A stretch of 64,000 bases of DNA. It comes from an uncultured Mycoplasmatota bacterium (lineage in GTDB: Bacteria; Bacillota_I; Bacilli_A; RF39; UBA660). The notes beneath the pieces were generated by a model that did not search any database, had not been told where the DNA came from, and worked only from the letters and a program-made list of their open reading frames with translations. Shown piece by piece: positions 1,715 through 62,862 of the stretch (positions are counted from its first letter, which is position 1; each line of letters opens with the position of its first letter). The translations under genes were made by a program, and so were the position numbers. The stretch lies in contig UREA01000005.1 in the NCBI GenBank assembly GCA_900546715.1, positions 5,032 through 69,031 of the forward strand, given 5' to 3'.

Positions 1715-2707
1715 ATGATTTATCTTGATAGTGCTGCTACATCTCGTTATTATGTCTCCGTGAAAGATTTTTTCAAAAATCCTCATGCTAATCATGCTTT
1801 AGGAATTAAAGCTCAAAAAGAAATGGACAGATGTAGAGAAATTATTAAAAAATATATTCATGTAAATGAAGGTATTGTAATTTTTGGATATAGCTCAACG
1901 GATTTAGCTAATAGATTGTTTAATCATCCTAAAGTTATTGGAAACGGAGTATTTATTTTTGGTGATGAACATGAATCTTTTTATCAATATGATAATCCAA
2001 TATGTACTTCCTATGTATTTCAAACACAAACATTAGTAAATAATATTACCGGTATCAAAAAACCTTTAGTTCGTAAAATGGAAAATACTTTTGTCATTGC
2101 GGATTATACGGCTGCTATTCATCATATGGTATTACCTGATAATGCAGAAGAATGTTATGATGCAATTATTGCAAGTGGACATAAATTCAATGGACCTCAA
2201 GGAACCGGGTTTATGTGGATTAGTGACCGTTTACAAAAATATTTAGGTGGTAATATTTGTGGTAATAATGAATATGGTTTTGTGCCAGGAACTCCTAATG
2301 TTAATGGGATTTTTGCTATGACAGAAGCATTGACAAAAGATGATTATACTTATATTTACAGCGAAGATTTATTAAAATCATTAAAAACAGTTTTTAATAG
2401 AAAAAATATAGAATATAAAATTATAGGAGAAAATACAAATAAAATTGCTGCTATCAATGCAATTTATCTTCCTGGGATAAACGCAGATGCTTTAACCAAT
2501 TATTTATCTACCAAAGCAATTTATATTAGTCCTGGACATTCTGCTTGTGCTGAAGAATCTGATTATAGAGTATTGAATTTTTATGGCTTAACAGATGAAG
2601 AAGCAGCTTGTACTATTAGAATTTCTTTTGATTCTCAAAATAACTATGGAGAAATTAATGAATTAGCGAAAGAAATTAGTTATTTTACAGATAAATTTGT
2701 AAAATAA
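1715..2707 (+). CDS. class V aminotransferase / cysteine desulfurase (NifS/IscS-like)
   Basis: PLP-lysine motif SGHKFNGPQGTGFMW. Catalytic Cys loop SPGHSACAEES. N-terminal YLDSAAT. RBS aggagg upstream. Confidence 0.7.
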   Translation: MIYLDSAATSRYYVSVKDFFKNPHANHALGIKAQKEMDRCREIIKKYIHVNEGIVIFGYSSTDLANRLFNHPKVIGNGVFIFGDEHESFYQYDNPICTSYVFQTQTLVNNITGIKKPLVRKMENTFVIADYTAAIHHMVLPDNAEECYDAIIASGHKFNGPQGTGFMWISDRLQKYLGGNICGNNEYGFVPGTPNVNGIFAMTEALTKDDYTYIYSEDLLKSLKTVFNRKNIEYKIIGENTNKIAAINAIYLPGINADALTNYLSTKAIYISPGHSACAEESDYRVLNFYGLTDEEAACTIRISFDSQNNYGEINELAKEISYFTDKFVK

Positions 2708-2725
2708 TAATAAGGAGTATTTAAT

Positions 2726-3820
2726 TTGAATGAGCAAATCAATGTTAAAATACTCAAATCTAAACTTACAATAGAAGATCATAAAAAAATATTAAACTAT
2801 CTTAATATACCAGTTTTTAATGAAACAGAAACTACCATCAATTATTGGACTGGTGATAAAAACAAAGATGCTTATAAAGGTAGCCCAGGAAAATTAGTTT
2901 TTTATAAAGACAACAAAATTTATGTGGGGTATACTTCTGGTCGAACTTATGATATTATTTCTCTTTGTCAAGTTCGATTAAATTTATTGAATAAAAAAAG
3001 TAATTTTTTAGATGCTATTAATTTTATTTTAGAATGTACTAATATTCAAAGTAAATCTGTCCAAAGAATTAATAAACCTAATGTTTGTAATTGGCAATCA
3101 AATTTAGAAAAATTTATAAGATTTAAAAATAATGAATCTATTTTTCAAGAATATGATGATTCTATCCTTTTGAATTTTTCTAATTCGTATTATGAAGGAT
3201 GGATAAATGAAGGTATTAGTATTCAATCAATGATAAAATATGAAATACGATATTATGATTATACTAATCAAATTATTATTCCTTGTAGAAATAAAGATGG
3301 AAATTTAATTGGTATAAGATGTCGAAATTTACATCCAGATCGAATAAATTATGCTAAGTATATTCCTTTAATTTTATTCAACAATAAGTGTTATAAATTT
3401 AATACCAACAATGAATTTTATGGCATATATTATAATTGGCCTGCGATAAAAAAAAAGAAAGAAGTAATATTAGTAGAAGGAGAAAAAAGCGTCTTAAAAG
3501 CCGATACTTGGTTTAATACTAATAGTAATGTTTTAGCTTTATATGGATCACAATTAGGATTGCACAGAAGAAACCAACTTGTAAAAATGGGAGTAAATAA
3601 AGTTATTTTAGCCTTAGATAGTGATTTTCATAACATAGGCGATAAAGAATATGAAGCCTTTGAAAAGAAAATTTTTTCATTAGGTAAACTATTTAAGGGT
3701 TATGCCAAAGTTTCTGTTATTTATAATAATATTGGGCTTGAAAACGCTTATAAATGCTCTCCTTTTGACTTTACATTAAATGAATATAAAACGCTTTATG
3801 ACAATCAAGAAGTATTATAA
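2726..3820 (+). CDS. DNA primase, Toprim domain (DnaG-like)
   Basis: TTG start after RBS aaggag. Toprim signature EVILVEGEKSVLKA ... ILALDSDF. No clear N-terminal zinc finger. Confidence 0.65.
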   Translation: MNEQINVKILKSKLTIEDHKKILNYLNIPVFNETETTINYWTGDKNKDAYKGSPGKLVFYKDNKIYVGYTSGRTYDIISLCQVRLNLLNKKSNFLDAINFILECTNIQSKSVQRINKPNVCNWQSNLEKFIRFKNNESIFQEYDDSILLNFSNSYYEGWINEGISIQSMIKYEIRYYDYTNQIIIPCRNKDGNLIGIRCRNLHPDRINYAKYIPLILFNNKCYKFNTNNEFYGIYYNWPAIKKKKEVILVEGEKSVLKADTWFNTNSNVLALYGSQLGLHRRNQLVKMGVNKVILALDSDFHNIGDKEYEAFEKKIFSLGKLFKGYAKVSVIYNNIGLENAYKCSPFDFTLNEYKTLYDNQEVL

Positions 3821-7240: not shown

Positions 7241-7423
7241 ATGAAATATACCTTATTGATTACAGAAATAAAAAAGAAAGAAAAGATTTTATATTTGAAA
7301 TCTTATGGTTATTATAAAGATTTAGTCTTTGTTGTAGAAAGACAATGGGAGAATGATAAATTAAATGATAAAGAAAGAAGTATAATGGAACATATGGGAG
7401 TTAAAACTTATGAGCTACTTTAG
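7241..7423 (+). CDS. hypothetical small protein
   Basis: ORF track only. Overlaps the dnaE start. Confidence 0.3.
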   Translation: MKYTLLITEIKKKEKILYLKSYGYYKDLVFVVERQWENDKLNDKERSIMEHMGVKTYELL

Positions 7424-8798
7424 TATTCACAATCATTCGGATATTGGCTCTAATGCAGGGCTTGGTTTTCCAGATACAATTTGTCGTGTACCCGATTTAA
7501 TTCAGAGAGCTTATGATTTAGGATTGCCTGGAATAGCTTTAACAGATCATGAATCATTAAGTGGACATATTCAAGCACTTAATTATTATAATTCTATGGG
7601 AAAAGATCGTTCTTTTACATTAGGATTAGGCAATGAAATTTATCTTGTTCCTGAAGAATGGGATGAGATAAATAAAGAACATCATAATACATATCCGTAC
7701 TGTCATTTTATTTTATTAGCTTTAGATAATGATGGACATAAACAACTTCGAGAACTTTCTACAAGAGCTTGGAAAAGAAGTTGGAAACAAAGAAGAATAT
7801 ATCGTTGTCCTACATATTATTCAGATTTAGAAGAAATTATTAAACCCAATCAAGGACATGTTATTGCTTCGACAGCTTGCTTGGGCGGAATAATTAGCAG
7901 ATTATTATTGGACAATAAATGGGAAAAAGCATTTGGAGAAAATGGAGAATTAAACAAATTTATAAATATTTTTGGGAGAGATAATATTTATCTTGAAATT
8001 CAACCTCCTAAAGATGCAAATTGCGATCAAAGTAAAGTCAATAGATTAATGTGGAAAGGTCATGAATTTACAGGAATAAAAATTATTCCGAGTTCCGATT
8101 CACATTATCTTAAAAAAGAAGATGCTTTTATTCATAAAATTTATTTAAATTCTCAAGAAGGAGATAGAGAAGTTGATGAATTTTATGCAACAACTTATCT
8201 TATGTCTCCTGATGATCTTCGAGAACATTTGTGTATAGATTTTACAGATGAACAAATAGAACAAATGTTTGAATGGTCTTTAGAAATTTGTAATAGAATA
8301 AAAGGATATAATTTTAATCATGATCCAATTATTCCTCAAATTCCAAAAGAAAAAATCCCAGATTCATTTACTATTCAGCATTGGTTCAAAGAATATTATA
8401 AAAATTATCCTGATTTTGCTTATTATGCTCTTAATAAAAACAATAACAAATGGGAAGAATATTTTTTTTATCAAGTGGAACAAGGATTAAAATCTAAAAT
8501 AGTAGATAAAGGAAAAGATTTACAATTATATATTGCTCGACTTAATGAAGAATTTGAACAATTTAGATTGATTAGTGAACAACTGAATACTTCTATTCCT
8601 TCTTATTTTTCTTCTATGTCAAAAATTATTGATCTTATATGGGAATCAAATAGTTTGGCTATGCCCGCTCGTGGTAGTAGTGCTGCGTCATTAACTAATT
8701 ATCTTTTAGAAGTTACTCAAATTGACCCTGTTCCATTAGGAAACTACTTTCCTTTCTGGAGGTTTTTAAGTGTCGAACGTGGAACAGAGCTTCCAGAT
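7410..8798 (+). CDS. dnaE: DNA polymerase III alpha (DnaE-type), exon 1: PHP domain and start of palm
   Basis: PHP motif SIHNHSDIGS ... ALTDHESLSG. The exon ends ..RFLSVERGTELPD, in the middle of the palm motif PDxDxDF. The unspliced frame hits a stop immediately after. Confidence 0.85.
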
Positions 8799-9068
8799 TA
8801 ACAACATAGTCTGGCTATATGGTGACATATAGAAAACAAGATGGTGAACCCGTACTTGCGGGGTGTGTCTAAAAAGATGCTAACAGTGAAAATCTTGGCC
8901 TACTGAATCGGGTTATGACAACACTGTGCCAAGGCCAAAAGGCAAGGTGCAACGACTAAGTGGCATTATGGTGAAATTCCTATTGTCCAGCGCCATCCTC
9001 TCTATTCTTATAGAGATGAAGATATAGTCTGATCTCATAGAAAATCATAACTATGAGCTAACACAATG
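8799..9068 (+). mobile_element. group I intron, ORF-less (dnaE intron 1)
   Basis: Follows exon U8798 and ends at G9068. Guide gtctgg (8809-8814) pairs with exon ccagat (8793-8798), with a terminal G.U. P7 strands are caacgacta (8950-8958) and aagatatagtc (9019-9029). Removal gives ..ELPD|IDNDSE.., restoring PDIDxD. Confidence 0.85.
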
Positions 9069-10197
9069 ATTGATAATGATTCAGAAGCCTCTAAAAAGAA
9101 AACAATTATAGCAAAAATTAAAGAATATTTTGGAGAAGATAAAGTATTAAATATTATAACTTTTTCAAAAATTTCTTCTAAAACTGCTATACAAAAAGCC
9201 TGCAAAGGATTAGATATTAATAATGATATCGCAGGTTACTTAAAATCTTTGATTCCCGTAGATCGTGGTAAAGTTGCTAAATTAAAAGATTGTTTATTTG
9301 GTAATAAAGAAAAAGGAATCAAACCAGTATATGAATTAGTCTCTGAGATGAAAAAATATCCTAAGTTGCAAGAAACTTGCTTAGGAATTGAAGGACTTGT
9401 AACTAATAGAGGGATTCATGCTGCGGGTATAATTATATGTAACGAACCTTATACCAATTTTCTATCCGCTATGAGATCACCAGATGGAACTTTAATTACT
9501 GGATATGATTTAATTGATGCAGAACAAGTAGGTTGCGTTAAATTTGATATGCTAACTACTACATGCACTGATAAAATTCATAAAACTTTAGATTATTTGG
9601 TTAAATACAATAAAATAAAACCGGGGAAAAATTTGAAAGAAACTTATTATAATTGGATACATCCTGACGTATTAAATTATGATAATCCTGAAATGTGGAA
9701 AATTATTCCTACAATTTATTCAGTATTTCAATTTGACACTCCTATTTCAGTTAAAGCTCTGGAAGCTACAAAACCTAAATCAGTAATGGATTTATCAGCG
9801 GCCAATAGTTTATTAAGATTACAACCTGAAAATAGTTCTATTACACCTATTGATTCTTATATTAAATATAAAAATAATCATCAAGAATGGATAGAAGATA
9901 CTAAAAATTTTGGATTGAATGATAAAGAGCGTGAAATTCTTTGGAAATATTTAGCTGATGCTTATGGATTGGCAGATAGTCAAGAAAAAATTATGCGTCT
10001 AAGTATGGACTCAGAAGTATCTGGATATAGCTTAAAAGAAGCAAATAAATTAAGAAAATCTATCGCTAAAAAAGATGAAAAACTCCAAGCTGAAGCTAAA
10101 CAACAATTTTTTGAATATGGACGAAAAATTGGAACAAGAGAAGTATTTTTAGATTATATATGGAATGTAGTATTTGCAGCAAGTATGGGATATTCGT
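9069..10197 (+). CDS. dnaE: DNA polymerase III alpha, exon 2
   Basis: Continues IDNDSE... Contains GIHAAGIIIC and VKFDMLTT, typical of DnaE palm/fingers. Ends ..ASMGYS plus one nt (phase 1). Confidence 0.85.
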
Positions 10198-11225
10198 AAA
10201 AGATTGTTTAACCTAAACCTTGTGGCATGGTTATTCAATTAAGCGCCTCATAGTAGTAATATTATGAGTGGAGTTTGTGAACTGTTTGGTCAACAGGTGT
10301 GTGAATTATATTCATGCTAACAGAAAAAGCCTAAACTGAAAACAGCAAGGTGATTCTGTGCTAAGTTATAAGAAGTTTTAATATGCAATTATATAACGGC
10401 GATTGTTTAGAAGTAATGAAATCAATTCCAAATAAATCTATTGATTTAATTCTATGTGATCTACCTTATGGTATAACTAAATGTAAATGGGATACTCCTA
10501 TTGATTTATTTGCTATGTGGAATCAATATAATAGAATAATCAAAGATAATGCCCCAATTCTTTTATTTGCTCAAACTCCTTTTGATAAAGTTCTTGGATC
10601 ATCTAATTTATCTATGCTTAAATATGAATGGATTTGGGAAAAAACACAGGCAACAGGTCATCTTAATGCAAAGAAAATGCCGATGAAAGCACATGAAAAT
10701 ATTCTTGTGTTTTATAAAAAATTGCCAATTTATAATCCACAAAAAACAACCGGCCATAAACCCATTCATTCATATACTAAATATATTAAAACTCAAAATA
10801 ATACAGAACTATATGGATATATGAAACAAGAAATATCAGGCGGAGGAGAAACAGACAGATACCCAAGAAGTATTATCACTTTTGCTTCTGACAAACAAAC
10901 TTGTCATTTACATCCTACTCAAAAACCCGTCACTTTGCTTGAGTATTTTATTAAAACTTATACGAACGAAGAAATGTTAGTCCTTGATAATTGCATGGGT
11001 TCTGGCTCCACAGGCATAGCCTGTATCAACACAAATAGGAATTTTATTGGAATTGAACTTGATAAACAATATTTTGATATCGCTAAAGAAAGATTAACTT
11101 CTTATAAAAAGTGCAACGACTAAGTGAACGGAAATTGACTACCGTTTGAGCGCAAACTACCCTAATCTTATAGATGGGTAAAGATATAGTCTGCTCTACA
11201 TAGAAATATGTAGCTAACATTAAGG
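10198..11225 (+). mobile_element. group I intron carrying a DNA methyltransferase ORF (dnaE intron 2)
   Basis: Shares the atgctaacag block, caacgacta (11114-11122), aagatatagtc (11181-11191) and the ..agctaaca..g 3' end with intron 1. Splicing U10197 to after G11225 gives GYS|FSQLHSYSYSIVALQE, matching the DnaE motif GYGFNKSHaaaYa. No convincing P1 guide was found by eye. Confidence 0.75.
10383..11123 (+). CDS. beta-class N6-adenine/N4-cytosine DNA methyltransferase (intron-encoded)
   Basis: Motif IV DLPY (LILCDLPYG) precedes the AdoMet motif DNCMGSGSTG, which is the beta-class order. HPTQKPVTLLEYFI is also present. The stop codon lies inside the intron P7 5' strand (gcaacgacTAAgtg). Confidence 0.8.
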   Translation: MQLYNGDCLEVMKSIPNKSIDLILCDLPYGITKCKWDTPIDLFAMWNQYNRIIKDNAPILLFAQTPFDKVLGSSNLSMLKYEWIWEKTQATGHLNAKKMPMKAHENILVFYKKLPIYNPQKTTGHKPIHSYTKYIKTQNNTELYGYMKQEISGGGETDRYPRSIITFASDKQTCHLHPTQKPVTLLEYFIKTYTNEEMLVLDNCMGSGSTGIACINTNRNFIGIELDKQYFDIAKERLTSYKKCND

Positions 11226-36884: not shown

Positions 36885-37253
36885 CTTTTATGTTTAGAAT
36901 TTTTTGTTTAAATGAATTGTTCTAATTCCTTTTATATTTCTATAAAAAATAGACCATATCTTAATATATAATATTTTATATATTTAGGGCGCTTAGGCTT
37001 TCGCCTACACTACTCACTTCGTTTGTTAATACAACTTATTCTCTATTAAGAGTTACATTTATTATTTGCTTTCGTTGGCCGTTGAAGGTTATACTATATT
37101 TCAATAGTATCTTCCCTGCGGATTGTCTACATATTTTTATTCTTATTACTATACCTTTGGCATTACCCTAAGCCCTTATAATATCACTATTATAAGTTAG
37201 TAAATAAAACTTTAAGATATCCCCGCAATTCACCCTATACTGGCAAGAAATCC
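36885..37253 (-). mobile_element. group I intron, ORF-less (TMP intron 4)
   Basis: Follows exon U37254 and ends at G36885. Guide gccagt (37244-37239) pairs with exon gctggt, with G.U pairs. P7 3' strand is aagatatggtc (+ strand gaccatatctt, 36952-36962). Paralog of TMP intron 3. Confidence 0.8.
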
Positions 37254-37389
37254 ACCAGCCGTAACCAAACCTATCGTCTCTTCAAATGTATTCCCTGTTG
37301 TTCCTAATGCTGTACCAGCTTTTATAAGAGCAGTAGATAAATCATTAGTACCAACAGCAAAATTATTGGCTGTCTCATTGCTATATTAA
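37254..37389 (-). CDS. tail tape measure protein, exon 4
   Basis: Encodes (V)NETANNFAVGTNDLSTALIKAGTALGTTGNTFEETIGLVTAG, a canonical TP901-type TMP core. It has no start codon of its own. Confidence 0.8.
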
Positions 37390-37724
37390 AATAAATTTTT
37401 ATTATTTGTTTAATATTCGACTATATCTTTATATTTAACTAAATATATCAGGGCGCTTGGGCTTTCGCCTACTCTACTCACTTCGTCTATTAAAATAGCT
37501 TATTCTCTATTAAGAGTTACATTTATCATTTGCTTTCGATAGTCTGTGAAGATTCATCTTTGTTTCAAAAGATGCTTTCCTGCGGATTGTTTATTATTAT
37601 ATCCTTTTTCCTTATTACTATTCCTTTGACATTACTCTCAGCCCTTATAATATCACTATTATAAGTTAGTAGAAAAAGACATTAAAATATTCCCGCAATT
37701 CACCCTAAAACGGCCTTTATTAAA
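37390..37724 (-). mobile_element. group I intron, ORF-less (TMP intron 3)
   Basis: Follows exon U37725 and ends at G37390. Guide gccgt (37714-37710) pairs with exon gcggt. P7 3' strand is aagatatagtc (+ strand gactatatctt, 37428-37438). Confidence 0.8.
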
Positions 37725-37924
37725 ACCGCATCAATAATATGCTCGGAATTTTCAGCCTCTATATTAAAGGCTTTCATTTGAGAGATCAAAAATCGTGCTG
37801 CGTCAGCACTTGATACTTGAGTATCAGCTATATTTGTATATTTAACCGCTATTTCTGCTAATAAAGCAGAATCACTATCATCAAAAGAGTTTTTTCTGAA
37901 TTCAGTGGCAGCTTGTAACATTTC
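37725..37924 (-). CDS. tail tape measure protein, exon 3
   Basis: Encodes EMLQAATEFRKNSFDDSDSALLAEIAVKYTNIADTQVSSADAARFLISQMKAFNIEAENSEHIIDA(V). The exon may begin 3 nt earlier, at 37927. Confidence 0.75.
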
Positions 37925-37930
37925 CGACAG

Positions 37931-38188
37931 TTAATCATCTATTGGACCATATTCTTCCATTTGTTCATTTTGCTCTCGATTATCTTCTTCAATCATTGAT
38001 TCAATAACTCCTTCATCTGTTTTCTCCTTTGAAAAAATAGCACAAAAAATCCCTGTTATTCCTACCATAATAAATGGTAAACAAACTACAATTTTTGGCA
38101 ATTCAGAAGGTCCAGCATAAAGAATAGCTAAAAGAATAAACCAAGCAATTATTAAAACAAAAACAAACAAACACACCATGACTCCCAT
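37931..38188 (-). CDS. intron-encoded small membrane protein (two TM helices plus an acidic tail)
   Basis: RBS aaggaga and ATG at 38188. Sequence VCLFVFVLIIAWFILLAILYA and IVVCLPFIMVGITGIFCAIF, then EEDNREQNEQMEEYGPIDD. The stop lies 3-6 nt before the 3' splice site. Confidence 0.5.
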   Translation of the reverse strand: MGVMVCLFVFVLIIAWFILLAILYAGPSELPKIVVCLPFIMVGITGIFCAIFSKEKTDEGVIESMIEEDNREQNEQMEEYGPIDD

Positions 38189-38209
38189 CTCCTTTTTAAT
38201 TCTATTATA

Positions 38210-38239
38210 ATTTTATCACTCATAAAATTAAAAAGTCAA
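38210..38239 (-). promoter_or_regulatory. sigma70-like promoter inside TMP intron 2
   Basis: On the - strand: ttgact (38239-38234), 18 nt, then extended -10 TGaTAAAAT (38218-38210). Confidence 0.45.
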
Positions 38240-38559
38240 TAGACAATTTTAACAAAAATACTTTCATATTTTCCTGGACTATTTCTTCACCCTATAATAT
38301 TTGGAGGGGTCGAACTTTTAAAGTCTCTTGACACATCCCTCATCAGGACTTCGCAACCAATCAACCATTCAATGATTATATAATCATTCCAGACTTAGGT
38401 ATTTCTACCATATCTTATTCTATTTATTGTTAATAGTTTCCCGCATTCATATTATCATATCTCATATAATATTGTAGCTAAATAGACTTTAGGTGTTATT
38501 GGATTTTGAACGATTCTCAGTGCTAATTTACCATCTTAACACTCCGGCCAGAAATATTA

Positions 38560-38648
38560 ACCGGTACGCCCAAACTGTTTACCAGCTTGAGATAATTGTG
38601 AAGTATAACTCTGCAGTCCTTCTTCACTCAGGTCAGAAACTTTCTTGA
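38560..38648 (-). CDS. tail tape measure protein, exon 2 (89 nt micro-exon)
   Basis: Encodes (F)KKVSDLSEEGLQSYTSQLSQAGKQFGRTG, which matches the TMP consensus ..ALTEFRKVSDLSgE.. when joined to exon 1. It falls below the ORF-track length threshold. Confidence 0.75.
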
Positions 38649-39046
38649 CATTTATATTAGGAAGTAATTGATAAAATATCAATTATATGGACGCTACTCC
38701 ATTCCCCTGTTTATATAACAGCTTTAATTTTCATTAAAGATTAGACTATATCTTCTTCTATAAATAATAGAAGTGTGCCATTTCAAAATACCAAACACTT
38801 GTATTTTTACTCCTTTTCAGGATAGTCGTTGAACGTTCCTTTATTCAAGGCTTCGCTGCTGATTATCTATTAATATTTACTTAGGATTTAACCATATAAA
38901 CATATTTTGCTTTTTTTCTACTTTCGTAACATTCACACTTAGGCATGTTTCATCCTTATGTTGTAGTAGCAAAATCTTTAAGACGTCCCAGCAATTAGAC
39001 ACATATTTTTACACTCATCTCACAATAAGCGAGAGCAAAAAAGTTC
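38649..39046 (-). mobile_element. group I intron, ORF-less (TMP intron 1)
   Basis: Follows exon U39047 and ends at G38649. Guide gctct (39036-39032) pairs with exon agagt. P7 strands are caacgacta (+ strand tagtcgttg, 38823-38831) and aagatatagtc (+ strand 38744-38754). The 5' half is near-identical to the tail-tube intron. Confidence 0.85.
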
Positions 39047-58464: not shown

Positions 58465-59107
58465 TTATTCTGAGTTCCGTTTTTCTTTTTTCCTTTGATT
58501 TTTCAGTTGTAATGAGCATTTTTCACTACAGGTTAGAGTATGTAATGCCATGTTTTTAGGAATAAATCTTCTTCCACAAACAATGCAGATTCTACTTTTA
58601 GGGTCTAAATTATTTTGTATATTGTCTATCATCACATCACCAAAACAATCCCATAGTCCTTTTTTAGCAGAAGTTTTTCTAACTGTATATAAATAAGCAA
58701 CTAAAGTATTCACAATATATTTAATATCTTCTCCGCTTTCCTCAATAATTTTCTCTCTCATATTTTTGTATTTATACATATCTTGATTTTTTATCCCTTT
58801 GTTCTTTTCTTTGAAGGTATGTAATCGTTTATTATAATAATCATAAAGCTGTATTATTGAATTATTATCAGAGATATTAAAACCAAAATTTAAGTCCATT
58901 AACATACGATAATCAAATTTATTAATAGATTCAGAAAAAATTATCTTAGAATCCGGTATTTTTTCGGCTATACGATTCATGGCAGATTTATTTTTCAAAT
59001 TTACCTGTTCCTTTTTTTTATCTTTAGCATAAATAAAAAAGTAGGGCAATTTCATATTGGTGTTTCTTTTTATAATTTCCTTCACATCTTTAGGCGGCTC
59101 TGGCAAC
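58465..59107 (-). CDS. YonO-like two-barrel RNA polymerase, exon 3
   Basis: The frame is open upstream of the track start. Joins as ..NNAV(M)LPEPPKDVK.. . C-terminal zinc ribbon CIVCG...CSEKC. Confidence 0.6.
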
Positions 59108-59417
59108 CACAGTGTTTTAGCAGAATCTCTTTTCTACCCTCGGTTTCCCGATATTTATTAGGGGAATAGACTATATCTTCATCTCTATAAGAATAGAGAG
59201 ACCGGCACTTCGGAATAAGGAGTTTCACCTTAAACCTACTCCCTTATGGGATAGTCGTTGCACCTTCCTTTTTATCAAAGGCTTGGCACAGAGTTGCCAT
59301 AATTCAATTTAATAAATTAAGGTTTTCTCTGTTAGCATGAATAAAATCCACACACCCTGTATTTACAGGTTCACCGGTTTTTACTTATACATCGCTGTAT
59401 AAGGTGACTATTATTTA
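59108..59417 (-). mobile_element. group I intron, ORF-less (RNAP intron 2)
   Basis: Follows exon U59418 and ends at G59108. Guide gtcac (59408-59404) pairs with exon gtgat. P7 strands lie on the + strand at 59252-59260 and 59169-59179. A 33-nt block at 59168-59200 is identical to dnaE intron 1 (8998-9030) on the opposite strand. Confidence 0.85.
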
Positions 59418-59695
59418 ATCACTGCATTATTATAAAAAGTTAACCAACGAATTACATTTAATTGTTCTTCTTCTATTTTTTTATTATTCCATATTTTAGT
59501 TATTTTATTAGATATAGGACCAATATTACCTTGAGTATAATTAAAAATCATACCTTCGTATATAGAATCAGAATCTAAATGCTTTTCTTTTGCTTTTTTT
59601 AACTCATAGTCTAAAGGAACTATATTTTTCATATTTCTTTCTGCAATAGAGCATATCAATTTACTTTGAATTACAAGCAATTTATCACCGTCGCA
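59418..59695 (-). CDS. YonO-like two-barrel RNA polymerase, exon 2
   Basis: Begins CDGDKLLVIQ.., which completes the metal-binding motif. Confidence 0.65.
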
Positions 59696-60595
59696 CGTAA
59701 AAGCTACTGACTATATCATAACCATGCGGTTTCCCGTTTAGGTCCAGTGCGCTTGGAAGCAGGGAGTTTCACCCTGCTTCTACTCTACTCAGTTATTACC
59801 TTGTAGCGGGTTCTGGCTTAATATCGAATTTATATATCATGGAAGGAACTTCATTTTTATATTTAGAAATTATTGAAAGAAATTTTCTCGCTTCTTTTGT
59901 ACCACACAATAAGCGATAATATTTATGATCTTTATTTTGATAAAATTTAATATGAAATTTTTCAAAAAACCAGTCAATAATTATTTGATTTTGATTTTGT
60001 TCTGCTTGAGTATTCAAATATAAAATGTTAGCAACCACTTGATTATTTTCTTTCTTTTTTGTCAAACTTCCATCATCTAAATACCAAATATAAAGTCCTA
60101 AAGATTCAATAGAATTTAATATAGATTTTTGATAGATTTTTTTAGAAGGTTTATATAATCTTCTTCTCCAAACCCTGATAAAATCATAAGATTTTGTTCT
60201 AAATTCATATCCACCATATTCATTATTATTAACATAATAAATTTCACTAACGGCTATTCCATTTTCTTTCAATATTTTTCTTTTCCATTCTAAATATTCT
60301 TTTTGTTTAATTGAATGACGAATACTTAAATAACCATTAGCATTAAATGTTCCATCTCCTAATGCCATCCATAATACTAAATTCCTTCCTAATTTTGTTG
60401 TTTTCATATTAAGTCTCCATACATATAAATGATGTTTTTTCCACCCTTAGTCGATAGAGGTTCCAGAATTTTTCTGGCTTCCTACGGAGTTGTGCTTACG
60501 TTCTCCGTTGCACTATTTTTAGTACATGGCATATTTATGCCTTCACACTGTTTTATATCCCATAGTTTCCTGATGGGTTCGACCGCGACGAACTA
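59696..60595 (-). mobile_element. group I intron with a LAGLIDADG ORF (RNAP intron 1)
   Basis: Follows exon U60596. A 6-bp P1 forms between guide gtcgaa (60583-60578) and exon ttcgat. P7 strands are atcgactaa (+ strand 60447-60455) and atgatatagtc (+ strand 59709-59719). Ends at G59696. Confidence 0.85.
59796..60407 (-). CDS. LAGLIDADG homing endonuclease (double-motif)
   Basis: Motifs LVLWMALGDGT and LYIWYLDDGS. 203 aa. Located between the two P7 strands. Confidence 0.8.
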   Translation of the reverse strand: MKTTKLGRNLVLWMALGDGTFNANGYLSIRHSIKQKEYLEWKRKILKENGIAVSEIYYVNNNEYGGYEFRTKSYDFIRVWRRRLYKPSKKIYQKSILNSIESLGLYIWYLDDGSLTKKKENNQVVANILYLNTQAEQNQNQIIIDWFFEKFHIKFYQNKDHKYYRLLCGTKEARKFLSIISKYKNEVPSMIYKFDIKPEPATR

Positions 60596-62188
60596 ATCGA
60601 ATTGTAATATTTTTGAAATTAAATCATGACAACTTGTATAAATGCACTTAGTGTTTCCGAACCAATATTCTATTTCAGTATTTTTATTATTGATTCTTAT
60701 AGGCCATTCTCTATATAAATGCGGACTTCTTAAACAAGCCAATTTCTTATTATCTTTGAAATCTTTACAATAAACTTCTCCTTTTTGTAATATTCCTTTC
60801 GGATTCTTAATTCCTAAAAATAACCATTCACAAAAAGCATAGAGATCAGGAGATACAAAATAATAACCTCCATTAACTCGTAATCGTCCAGCCTTTGCTT
60901 GTTTTACTAAACTAATTTTTGTTTGTTTCAATATATCTCGACAATAAGGATCACGTATTAATTCAGGATATAATATCAATGCTTGCTGAAACCAACTTGG
61001 ATTAATATTATTTTTTGTAGCTCCTAATAGACGCATACTTGTTTGAAAATCATTTCCTATGGAATTTATTTCTTTTATAGTATTTTTTATTAAATAATTA
61101 ATTTCATTAGAGGTAATATCTGTCAAAGTCTGCAGCATTTGATAATTTATACGGCTTTTAGGTATATAATTTTCTTCTATATTACAATAACATACTTCAC
61201 AATTATATTTTTTAAAATTATCTTTATATTCTTGCCAGGAAGAATAATATTTATACAATTTAAATTGAGATTTTGTGAATATATATTCAATTCCATCAGC
61301 TAAAATATCATATTCTTTACCATAAATATCTTTGATAATACATGTTCCATTTTTACATTTTTCTTTAATAAATTTGTCAAAAGGAAAAGTTATAAGCAAA
61401 CCTTTTATAAATGGTGCTCTAATCATTCTTGTAGGACCATTAAGCATAATACCACATCCATCAGTATGAGATATTTTAACTTCTTTTTCTTGTCGTGTTA
61501 TTTTATATGTTTTAGAATCAATATAATCTACTTCCTCTTGAACATTTGTTTCAAAATCTTCTACAACTATACTTTTATCAATGTCAAAATCGTTCCAAGG
61601 ATCGGTTGCTGAATTACTCAAAGCAAGATAACTTAAAAATTTATTTGGGTTTATACCGCCTTTTTCATTAATTTTTTCTATTGTTAATCCACACATTAAA
61701 GTCAAAGAAATTTTATTATATATTTTTTCTTTTATAAAAACACTTTTTTTTGTTCTTATTTGTCCAGCAGAAGCAGTTAAAAAAATATATTTTTCATTAT
61801 TGTATAAAAATCCATTTTTAACTAAATTTTTGAATACTTGAAAAAAATATACATCAACTATGAATAAGTCTTTAGTCAAAGAATTTGTTGTAATATTCAT
61901 AGTTCTTGTTAAACTGCTTTCAAATAAACTAATAATATTTTTTTCTTTAAGAGATTTTATATTCAATTCTCTAACAATATCACTATTTTTTTTAGCATCT
62001 AATAGACAAGTTAATTTTCTTTTTTCTTGTTTTATTAATTTATTGATCCATTTTTTACGCCATTCGGATTTATTTTTGTTTTTAGCTATATAAAGTCTTA
62101 ATAATCTTTTGTGAAAAAATTGTTCTTCTGAATTGTAAAAATCATCAGTAGAAATAGAATATAAAAAAATTTGTTTATTCAAACTCAT
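60596..62188 (-). CDS. YonO-like two-barrel (RdRP-like) single-subunit RNA polymerase, exon 1
   Basis: ..ACLRSPHLYREWPIRI...ILQFD|CDGDKLLVI aligns with the beta-prime pattern NRAPTLHR...NADFDGDQMAVH. The exon ends inside the DxDGD motif. Confidence 0.6.
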
Positions 62189-62862
62189 TTTTCATTCTCA
62201 CAGTCTTATTTAAGTATTTATTTTTTATTTTAATTATAATAATTTTTTAGTCTATTTTTATTTTTATTATACCACTCCTTCTCTTTATATAGGATTTGCT
62301 TTTAGAATCAAAAATAAAAAGATTTTTTATTGTAATTATAATAAAATAAAATTTTATGTTTTTGCAAGTAATTCTCTTCGCCCCGCAGGGAGTATAAATG
62401 CGGAGCAATTTGCATAATAACAAAGAACAAAAAGTTTTTGCATTTTTCAAAAAGAAAGTACCAAAGAAATTTTATTTTTAAAAAATAAAAATTTTATTTC
62501 ACTTCATTTCATTACGTTCAATAAAAATTTTATTTTTTAAAAATATATTATATTATTATTTGATATTTATTTATAAAATATATAATAATATAATATATTT
62601 TTTCTTTTTCTTTATATATTTCTTTTTCTTTTAATAAGTATATTTAATATATATATTAAATATATAAATATATTATATATAATAGTTTTTATAATGTCAA
62701 GTATAAAAATAGACAAATTTATTATATAATATATTATATATTTTATTCAAAATAACACTTGACAATTACAAGATGAATAGATAATATAAAGAAAAACAAA
62801 ACAGATAAAACGAGTGTGATCGGGGTGCGGAGCCCGCATGGACATAAAGGAGGAAAACAATC
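62189..62862. promoter_or_regulatory. extremely AT-rich divergent control region (candidate promoter hub or origin)
   Basis: No credible ORF. Palindromes: tatatttaatatatatattaaatata near 62640-62665, and aaattttatttttaaaaaataaaaatttt near 62470-62500. Iterated ataatatat motifs. Sits between divergently transcribed blocks. Confidence 0.5.
62759..62787 (+). promoter_or_regulatory. sigma70-like promoter (TTGACA-17 nt-TAATAT)
   Basis: ttgaca at 62759-62764 and taatat at 62782-62787. Confidence 0.5.

Follow-up and report, generated by a model that had tools for sequence, protein, structure and literature searches.

Two predicted group I introns, one directly after the first catalytic Asp codon, in a yonO-type RNA polymerase gene of a metagenomic lineage

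Introduction

YonO is an experimentally proven DNA-dependent RNA polymerase that transcribes the late operon of SPbeta, and its Asp triad is essential, a 3D>3N mutant being dead (PMC5467207). An intron in another phage RNA polymerase gene is also on record: as PMC11878797 relates from PMC11620839, the polymerase gene of PhiPA3 carries a group I intron with an HNH endonuclease able to target a related phage whose allele lacks the intron. Here, we describe a yonO-type gene at positions 58465-62188 of a 64,000-nt stretch of DNA (contig UREA01000005.1 of assembly GCA_900546715.1, forward-strand positions 5,032-69,031), which we call the window. With a probability of about 0.85, the product of this gene, which is interrupted by two mobile group I introns, is a single-chain two-barrel DNA-dependent RNA polymerase orthologous to SPbeta YonO.

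The window protein resembles SPbeta YonO in sequence (46-48% identity), in its DxDGD triad, in its RSPHL motif, and in its C-terminal zinc ribbon, and like SPbeta yonO, the window gene heads a late/structural cluster beside an HU-like gene. Unlike the window gene with its two introns, SPbeta yonO is uninterrupted (839 codons), and in contrast to SPbeta, the window represents a metagenomic lineage of wastewater and IMG/VR contigs with 25-38% G+C.

Split yonO genes are present in GenBank as phi3T_60/59 (KY030782) and as yonO_1 and yonO_2 of Goe11 (MT601272). Comparison with SPbeta places the boundaries of these introns at ATCGAT/UAAAU...CAAAG/TTCGCA (here and below, a slash within a sequence marks the splice site); the phi3T intron has 399 nt and no open reading frame (ORF), while the Goe11 intron has 1289 nt and a 300-aa ORF. 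Both are of the same RNA family as intron 2 of the window gene and lie in the same conserved I-D-x-A-K-T-L region, and the Goe11 intron resembles intron 1 of the window in carrying an endonuclease ORF. Unlike the window, however, both phages have their splice site after the Asp625 codon (ATC GAT/) and no intron at DxDGD. No paper describing the split yonO introns of phi3T and Goe11 came up in literature searches on YonO or phi3T and introns.

As far as the account of PhiPA3 in PMC11878797 goes, the two systems share a group I intron with a homing endonuclease in the phage's own two-barrel-type RNA polymerase gene. The PhiPA3 enzyme is a multisubunit jumbo-phage polymerase and its endonuclease is of the HNH type, whereas the window gene is of the single-chain YonO type and carries a LAGLIDADG gene (HNH in sister contigs). 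By the same account, phage competition has been shown for PhiPA3.

Results

Three ORFs form one yonO gene

The minus strand of 58465-62188 contains four ORFs, which the ORF listing places where an earlier note on this DNA had put them.

62188..60593, minus strand: yonO exon-1 ORF, 531 aa, ending ILQFD and then TAG
60407..59796, minus strand: LAGLIDADG ORF, 203 aa
59680..59411, minus strand: yonO exon-2 ORF, 89 aa; its frame is open from 59710, reading SVAFTCDGDKLLVI
59106..58465, minus strand: yonO exon-3 ORF, 213 aa

The yonO fragments map in order on the PHROG profile phrog_8308, at positions 2-550, 557-643, and 651-829 of 847 (E = 4.5e-192). Joining them at canonical group I junctions gives an 844-aa product, encoded as follows.

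60596..62188, minus strand: yonO exon 1, codons 1-531; the last codon, GAT, is the first Asp of DxDGD
59696..60595, minus strand: yonO intron 1, 900 nt, predicted group I (IA-like)
59796..60407, minus strand: gene for a 203-aa LAGLIDADG homing endonuclease with two motifs (LGDGTF and LDDGSL), located in the P7.1 loop of intron 1
59418..59695, minus strand: yonO exon 2, 278 nt, from TGC GAC GGT GAT (C-D-G-D) to GCA GTG AT
59129..59417, minus strand: yonO intron 2, 289 nt, predicted group I (IA-like, with P7.1 and P7.2), no ORF
58465..59128, minus strand: yonO exon 3, A plus GAT TCT GCT to the stop TAA, including a C-terminal Cys4 zinc ribbon

The 844-aa product is collinear from end to end with ten intact homologues and with YonO, without an indel at either join, and its N terminus, MSLNKQI, agrees with those of homologues in the alignment. 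The order of the fragments on phrog_8308 and on intact homologues of 840-848 aa confirms the proposal of the earlier note that ORFs of 531, 89, and 213 aa make up one protein, which in intron-less relatives is indeed a single chain; the length of about 837 aa given there is corrected to 844 aa. The second, ORF-less intron had been placed 278 nt downstream of the first, and exon 2, which closes on the first two bases of codon Ile624, has exactly this length. Because the split gene recurs in independent metagenome contigs at 98.4-99.5% identity, and because the exon-1 fragment represents a database cluster of 584 member sequences, the arrangement is not due to chance. An intein is ruled out by the stop codons and frame changes between the fragments.

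The spliced product is a YonO homologue with an intact Asp triad

In tblastn searches, exon 1 matched SPbeta YonO over all 531 aa (47.7% identity, E 1e-147) and was also 52% identical to a protein of Clostridium phage D-1873 and 49% identical to a Psychrobacillus phage protein annotated as an RNA-dependent RNA polymerase. When aligned over its full length, the spliced protein is 46% identical to SPbeta YonO. A database search with this product returned >4,400 relatives, the best of which are intact proteins of 840-848 aa with 60-67% identity, many of them on contigs of ~100 kb.

Exon 1 alone matches the Pfam family RdRP (PF05183) with 43 bits (cut-off, 23.8). After joining of the exons, the match rises to 59.8 bits (2.7e-16) and extends over residues 113-675, or profile positions 52-576 of 582, which provides independent support for the splice model. 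Across 20 homologues, D531, D533, G534, and D535 are invariant, and the triad is complete only once intron 1 is removed. RSPHL (487-491) is likewise invariant across homologues, as are C805, C808, C824, and C828 of the C-terminal zinc ribbon. Homology to YonO, the PF05183 match, and the invariant Asp triad all support the two-barrel YonO/RdRP-like identity that the earlier note had proposed; the fold itself is a prediction that we make by homology. By analogy with SPbeta and from the gene order, the window protein would be expected to carry out DNA-dependent RNA synthesis and to transcribe late genes.

SPbeta YonO itself has no Pfam match at E <= 0.01, unlike the spliced window protein; the window lineage is nearer to the Pfam RdRP profile than the reference YonO is.

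Intron 1 splits the catalytic motif and carries a LAGLIDADG gene

Exon 1 ends in CAA TTC GAT, directly followed by TAG, and the downstream frame reads TGC GAC GGT GAT AAA. Joined, they give QFD/CDGDK, which aligns without an indel to QFDNDGDK, ADVDGDK, and similar sequences of homologues. The 5' splice site lies after U60596, and the last base of the intron is G59696. A guide, GUCGAA (60583..60578), pairs with the 5' exon sequence UUCGAU to form P1, with a U.G pair at the splice site; a second guide, GUCGCG (60589..60584), pairs with the start of exon 2, UGCGAC, to form P10; and the intron carries the S element GAUAUAGUC. The earlier note had placed a LAGLIDADG intron between the first and second Asp of the motif, which these boundaries refine to a site directly after the first Asp codon (GAT/.../TGC GAC GGT GAT). 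A junction at CAA T/CT TTT ACG TGC was rejected, since it would destroy the first Asp. The predicted ligated junction is CAATTCGAT/TGCGACGG, also given as CAATTCGAT/TGCGACGGTGAT, and an intron-less target at the DxDGD site would contain ATATTACAATTCGATTGCGACGGTGATAAATTG.

The ORF within intron 1 matches Pfam LAGLIDADG_2 (81 bits, 1.1e-22) and phrog_11023 (2e-21), lies between P7 and P7.2, and has a GGAG ribosome-binding site 8 nt upstream. On both sides of this ORF region, the wastewater contig L004 is 99.5% identical to the window; the corresponding values for IMG/VR contigs are 99.6% and 98.9% (L006) and 96.6% (L005). Both L004 and L006 have a short hairpin instead of the LAGLIDADG gene; L004 (2270-3029) and L006/L090 carry an HNH_3-type ORF in another loop, where the window has the hairpin GCCAGAAAAAUUCUGG. 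The HNH ORF of L004 and L006 contains an in-frame TGA at the position of a Trp codon in the intact homologue of contig L097, likely a nonsense mutation. The existence of two intron-1 alleles with different endonuclease cargo shows that the ORFs are loop insertions and allowed the ORF-less core to be reconstructed; its minimum free energy (MFE) fold (z = -5.8) recovers P2, P3, P6a, P7.1, and P7.2.

Two side observations concern this site. The intact homologue P0011 is divergent just at the position of intron 1 (ITRYVMADVDGDKLLVI, where close relatives read ISRILQFDNDGDKALVV; alignment A1), a patch that might be the scar of a co-conversion or a target that resists the endonuclease. Contig L006 (IMGVR_UViG_3300045988_168969) holds two inverted copies of the yonO region, which are probably a palindromic assembly artefact.

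Intron 2 is homologous to the yonO intron of SPbeta-like phages

The 3' half of intron 2 is ~80% identical to the yonO intron of phi3T, SPR, BUCT083, and other SPbeta-like phages. This homology sets its boundaries at GUGAU/UAAAUAAUAGUCA ... GGGUAGAAAAG/AGAUUC, with G59129 as the last base; a stop codon occurs two codons into the intron. The protein then reads AVIDSAKTLWLP at the join, compared with FTIDFAKTLFMP in SPbeta, without an indel, and the predicted ligated junction is GCAGTGAT/AGATTCTGC, also given as GCAGTGAT/AGATTCTGCT. We chose this junction because it is homologous to the phi3T boundaries, introduces no indel, and keeps the invariant Ile-Asp; the alternatives GTG ATT/AAA AGA GAT and AAA T/AT TCT were rejected, as they add two residues and one residue, respectively. 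In P1, UGAU/UA pairs with UAGUCA, and guide and exon change together between the window (UGAU with GUCA) and phi3T (CGAU with GUCG). The MFE fold of intron 2 has z = -3.8. The 3' core of the intron-2 family (P7'-P9) shares 93.8% identity with phage Twort over 48 nt, and the P7'-P9 segment is 94-96% identical over ~50 nt to K-like, P100-like, and SPO1-like phages. A 48-aa ORF at 59228..59082 overlaps the conserved ribozyme core and was judged spurious.

Covariation places both introns in one family

As is the rule for group I, the 5' exon ends in U and the intron ends in G in both cases, and a U.G pair at the splice site is present in 8/10 members of the intron family, which also has an R element (GUGCAACGACUAU) and an S element (GAAGAUAUAGUC). 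We aligned seven site-2 introns with ORFs removed (alignment A2) and ten sequences including intron 1 (alignment A4). In A2, a model comprising P1, P2, P3, a P4-like hairpin, P6a, P7, P7.1, P7.2, P9, and P9a has 97.8% of cells paired and compensatory change in 29/52 pairs (slid controls, 31-44%; no shuffle reached the observed values). In A4, P1, P3, the hairpin, and P7.2 have 94.7% paired cells, and 15/21 pairs are compensatory; the covariation of the intron-2 family extends to helices P3, H1, and P7.2 of intron 1. In the MAFFT alignments, the R element and P6a were wrongly placed in intron 1 and L097, as was P8 in several sequences; we excluded these helices from the pair counts and inspected them by eye and by MFE folding. 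Compensatory changes back P3, P6a, P7, P7.1, P7.2, and P9, and MFE folding yields the same helices. The interleaving of P3 and P7 is that of group I introns, and the presence of P7.1 and P7.2 points to subgroup IA.

The window introns resemble the classical phage IA-type group I introns of Twort orf142, T4 td/nrdB, SPO1 DNA polymerase, and SPbeta bnrdE/F in the U.G pair at the 5' site and the terminal G, in the P3/P7 pseudoknot topology with P7.1/P7.2 insertion and R and S elements, and in having endonuclease ORFs in peripheral loops and insertion sites in highly conserved codons. Together, this strong covariation argues that both introns belong to one IA-like group I family, and both are predicted to be of the self-splicing type. 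Junctions, guide pairings, covariation, and homology thus bear out the two introns that the earlier note had recognized.

Introns in yonO are optional and mobile

We mapped the spliced protein on 80 IMG/VR and 65 GTDB loci. The gene is not split in 74/80 IMG/VR loci and 61/65 GTDB loci (about 135/145 together); the split genes, with those of SPbeta-like phages, have the following insertion sites (codon, end of the 5' exon, occurrence, cargo).

After codon 182, AAU/: L095 and L098
After codon 312, CAU/: L087 (98.4% identical to the window), with a 387-aa Cys-rich ORF
Inside codon 530, CAGU/UU: L097 (68% identical), with an intact 224-aa HNH ORF homologous to the L004 ORF
After codon 531, GAU/: window lineage only
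At codons 624/625, AU/A or GAU/: about ten loci and SPbeta-like phages

The third yonO intron of L087 (397-1786) has 1390 nt, lies inside the invariant FTKSQFKLYKYY motif, and forms P1 from GCAU and GUGC; its 387-aa ORF weakly matches DUF2726. The L097 intron (2571-3589) is located 5 nt upstream of the window DxDGD site, within the Phe530 codon. The intron-2 site of the window lies 4 nt upstream of that of phi3T (GTG AT/A GAT versus ATC GAT/), both following GAU; the register is that of the window in L028 and L057 and that of phi3T in L027, L030, L031, and L137. That homologous introns occupy positions 4 nt apart suggests that the site has shifted, perhaps by reverse splicing or imprecise homing.

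This scattered presence, together with variable sites and cargo, shows yonO introns to be optional, recurrent, and mobile, and the DxDGD-site intron to be rare. Across the sequences compared, the introns behave as selfish, optional passengers in the most conserved codons and not as a conserved regulatory device.

Other introns in the window are relevant here as separate observations. A 270-nt intron of the same RNA family (8799-9068, plus strand; P1 CCAGAU with GUCUGG; ending in G) interrupts the gene of a Pol III alpha-like DNA polymerase at PD/IDND. The flanking ORFs, 7410..8801 and 9066..10199, match Pfam DNA_pol3_alpha contiguously at 4-103 and 104-259. With reference to the Asp positions of E. 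coli DnaE, we take this site to be right after a catalytic Asp codon. On the minus strand at 36930-39036, Rfam group I matches occur at 38722-39036 (65 bits, above the cut-off), 36930-37336 (40.6 bits), 38255-38384 (27.9 bits), and 37407-37748 (22 bits). They fall among fragments of a gene that, judged from its ORF sequences only, is tape-measure-like and may carry several introns.

The gene order and candidate promoters fit an SPbeta-like late program

The yonO gene heads a minus-strand block and is followed by two HU-like genes (Pfam Bac_DNA_binding) and by homologues of YonJ, YonG, and YonD, in an order that matches SPbeta. We scanned for sense-strand matches to the sigma70 consensus of >= 11/12. 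Four such sites were found in the 16.5-kb plus block, at 537, 1353, 12701, and 13283, and none on the minus strand at 16.5-62.2 kb (a 45.7-kb block). Between 16.5 and 62.8 kb, the only sense-strand site of >= 11/12 is the following.

62672..62700, minus strand: candidate host-type yonO promoter by consensus match only, TTGACA-17-TATAAT, 12/12, ~485 nt upstream of the ATG

Promoter counts at a lax threshold were nowhere above shuffled controls, and the numbers are small. The strict sites (4 versus 0) agree with the contrast drawn in the earlier note between many early and few late promoters. By analogy with SPbeta, the pattern fits transcription of early genes and yonO by the host polymerase and then of the rest by YonO, and a phage-polymerase-dependent late program is a reasonable proposal.

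Discussion

YonO, group I introns in phage polymerase genes (e.g., PhiPA3), and LAGLIDADG endonucleases are already known. The novelty of this locus is the DxDGD-site intron with a LAGLIDADG gene in yonO, a fresh example of a known selfish element that involves no new mechanism, and our understanding of how YonO or group I introns work is unchanged. Standard gene calling breaks yonO into "hypothetical protein" pieces, as in phi3T, Goe11, and the 584 exon-1 database entries; recognizing its introns restores a key late-transcription enzyme to annotations and adds a well-supported phage group I intron family that the standard Rfam model has overlooked. The natural variants in near-identical genomes (LAGLIDADG or HNH; two or three introns) are suited to studies of homing and phage competition at a polymerase active site.

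Expression of the gene would proceed in several steps. Host RNA polymerase would transcribe yonO, probably from the consensus promoter at 62700. Each intron would then fold, with its guide pairing to the end of the upstream exon through a U.G wobble and, in intron 1, with P10 as well. Guanosine-initiated self-splicing would join CAA TTC GAT/TGC GAC GGT GAT and GCA GTG AT/A GAT TCT GCT. The ligated mRNA encodes the 844-aa protein with an intact DxDGD triad, while the unspliced message stops at the TAG after the first Asp, giving 531 aa without two of the three catalytic Asp residues. As in SPbeta, the polymerase may then transcribe the minus-strand late block. When relatives co-infect, the LAGLIDADG enzyme may cut their intron-less yonO at the DxDGD-coding sequence, and the intron would be copied in during repair.

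We tentatively raise a broader scenario, which we consider rather unlikely: that this lineage is a live arena of intron and endonuclease warfare on polymerase active sites. Related IA-like introns are located right after the first catalytic Asp codon (GAU) of both the RNA polymerase (FD/CDGD) and the Pol III alpha-like DNA polymerase (PD/IDND), the conserved P1 core of GAU with GUC may predispose the family to Asp codons, and LAGLIDADG and HNH cargo would be swapped between genomes with 99.5% identical flanks. If so, the endonucleases would be weapons against co-infecting relatives, as has been shown for PhiPA3 by the account cited above, and the 4-5-nt shifts of intron sites would reflect escape and re-invasion, or reverse splicing.

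Several results weigh against the reading of this locus as a two-barrel polymerase gene with two group I introns. Unlike the classical IA introns, neither yonO intron matches Rfam RF00028 (searches of the region and the whole window at the gathering threshold and at E <= 10 or E <= 1), and we could draw no canonical P4-P5 with J4/5; in its place, after J3/4, there is in this family only a short hairpin of 5 bp that covaries and has an AAA(U/A) loop, together with another, variable hairpin. The phi3T and Goe11 yonO introns have no match to the Rfam group I model either, and RF00028 does match other introns within the window. According to a 2025 survey, many introns of phages escape this model, and those of the IA type are heterogeneous (PMC11878797); we treat the missing match as a problem of sensitivity and not as evidence against the introns. 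For the protein, an AlphaFold2 model from the 20-sequence alignment was poor, with a mean predicted local distance difference test (pLDDT) score of 54.5 and values of <50 for residues 332-606, the catalytic region. Of the profile and structure searches that the earlier note had called for, the former succeeded with PF05183; Foldseek, run with this poor model against the PDB, gave only noise and no match at E <= 0.001, which we read as uninformative, not as a negative. Sequence searches of the PDB gave no match with the protein (phmmer) or with the 20-sequence profile (hmmsearch).

That yonO is a decayed, fragmented pseudogene whose inserts are never removed would agree with the three separate ORFs of standard gene calling and with the failure of Rfam to recognize either insert as an intron. 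This explanation is extremely improbable, however: every exon frame is intact, all family-invariant residues are retained across the joins, covarying ribozyme helices are present in the inserts, whose boundaries are canonical, and several independent contigs share the architecture. An unlikely but less remote alternative is that the introns are real but splice only with help from a protein cofactor, a host factor, or the LAGLIDADG protein acting as a maturase, and are not truly self-splicing. Some LAGLIDADG proteins do act as maturases, and the P4-P5 region is non-canonical. Against such a requirement, related Twort introns have been described to self-splice in vitro, intron 2 and many of its relatives lack an ORF, and intron 1 of L004 has no LAGLIDADG gene.

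The earlier note had also suggested that the late program is gated by splicing of the polymerase mRNA. As a dependency this stands, in that late transcription probably depends on yonO splicing; as regulation it does not, since the introns are optional and vary so much, even in near-identical genomes, that a regulatory role of splicing is unlikely. In its strong form, in which the introns would have been co-opted to set the early-to-late switch through the timing or efficiency of splicing, the idea draws on the probable requirement of YonO for late transcription (PMC5467207), on the need for two splicing events, given stop codons directly behind the 5' splice site of intron 1 and, in intron 2, after two codons, and on a late block without strong sense-strand sigma70-type sites. 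Set against this are a variable intron content among genomes that are 98.4-99.5% identical, the unsplit state of about 135/145 homologous loci and of SPbeta, insertion sites that move by 4-5 nt between lineages, and the failure to find a conserved regulatory feature; we therefore regard co-option as very unlikely and favor selfish, optional introns.

One minor observation concerns RNA near the start of YonO-dependent transcription. An unannotated non-coding RNA lies at the YonO transcription start, upstream of yonK (Forrest et al., PMC5467207). In Rfam searches, the window had no match to the "skipping-rope" RNA; in Goe11 (7327-7436), just downstream of yonN, there is a sub-threshold match to it of 31.3 bits (cut-off, 36.7).

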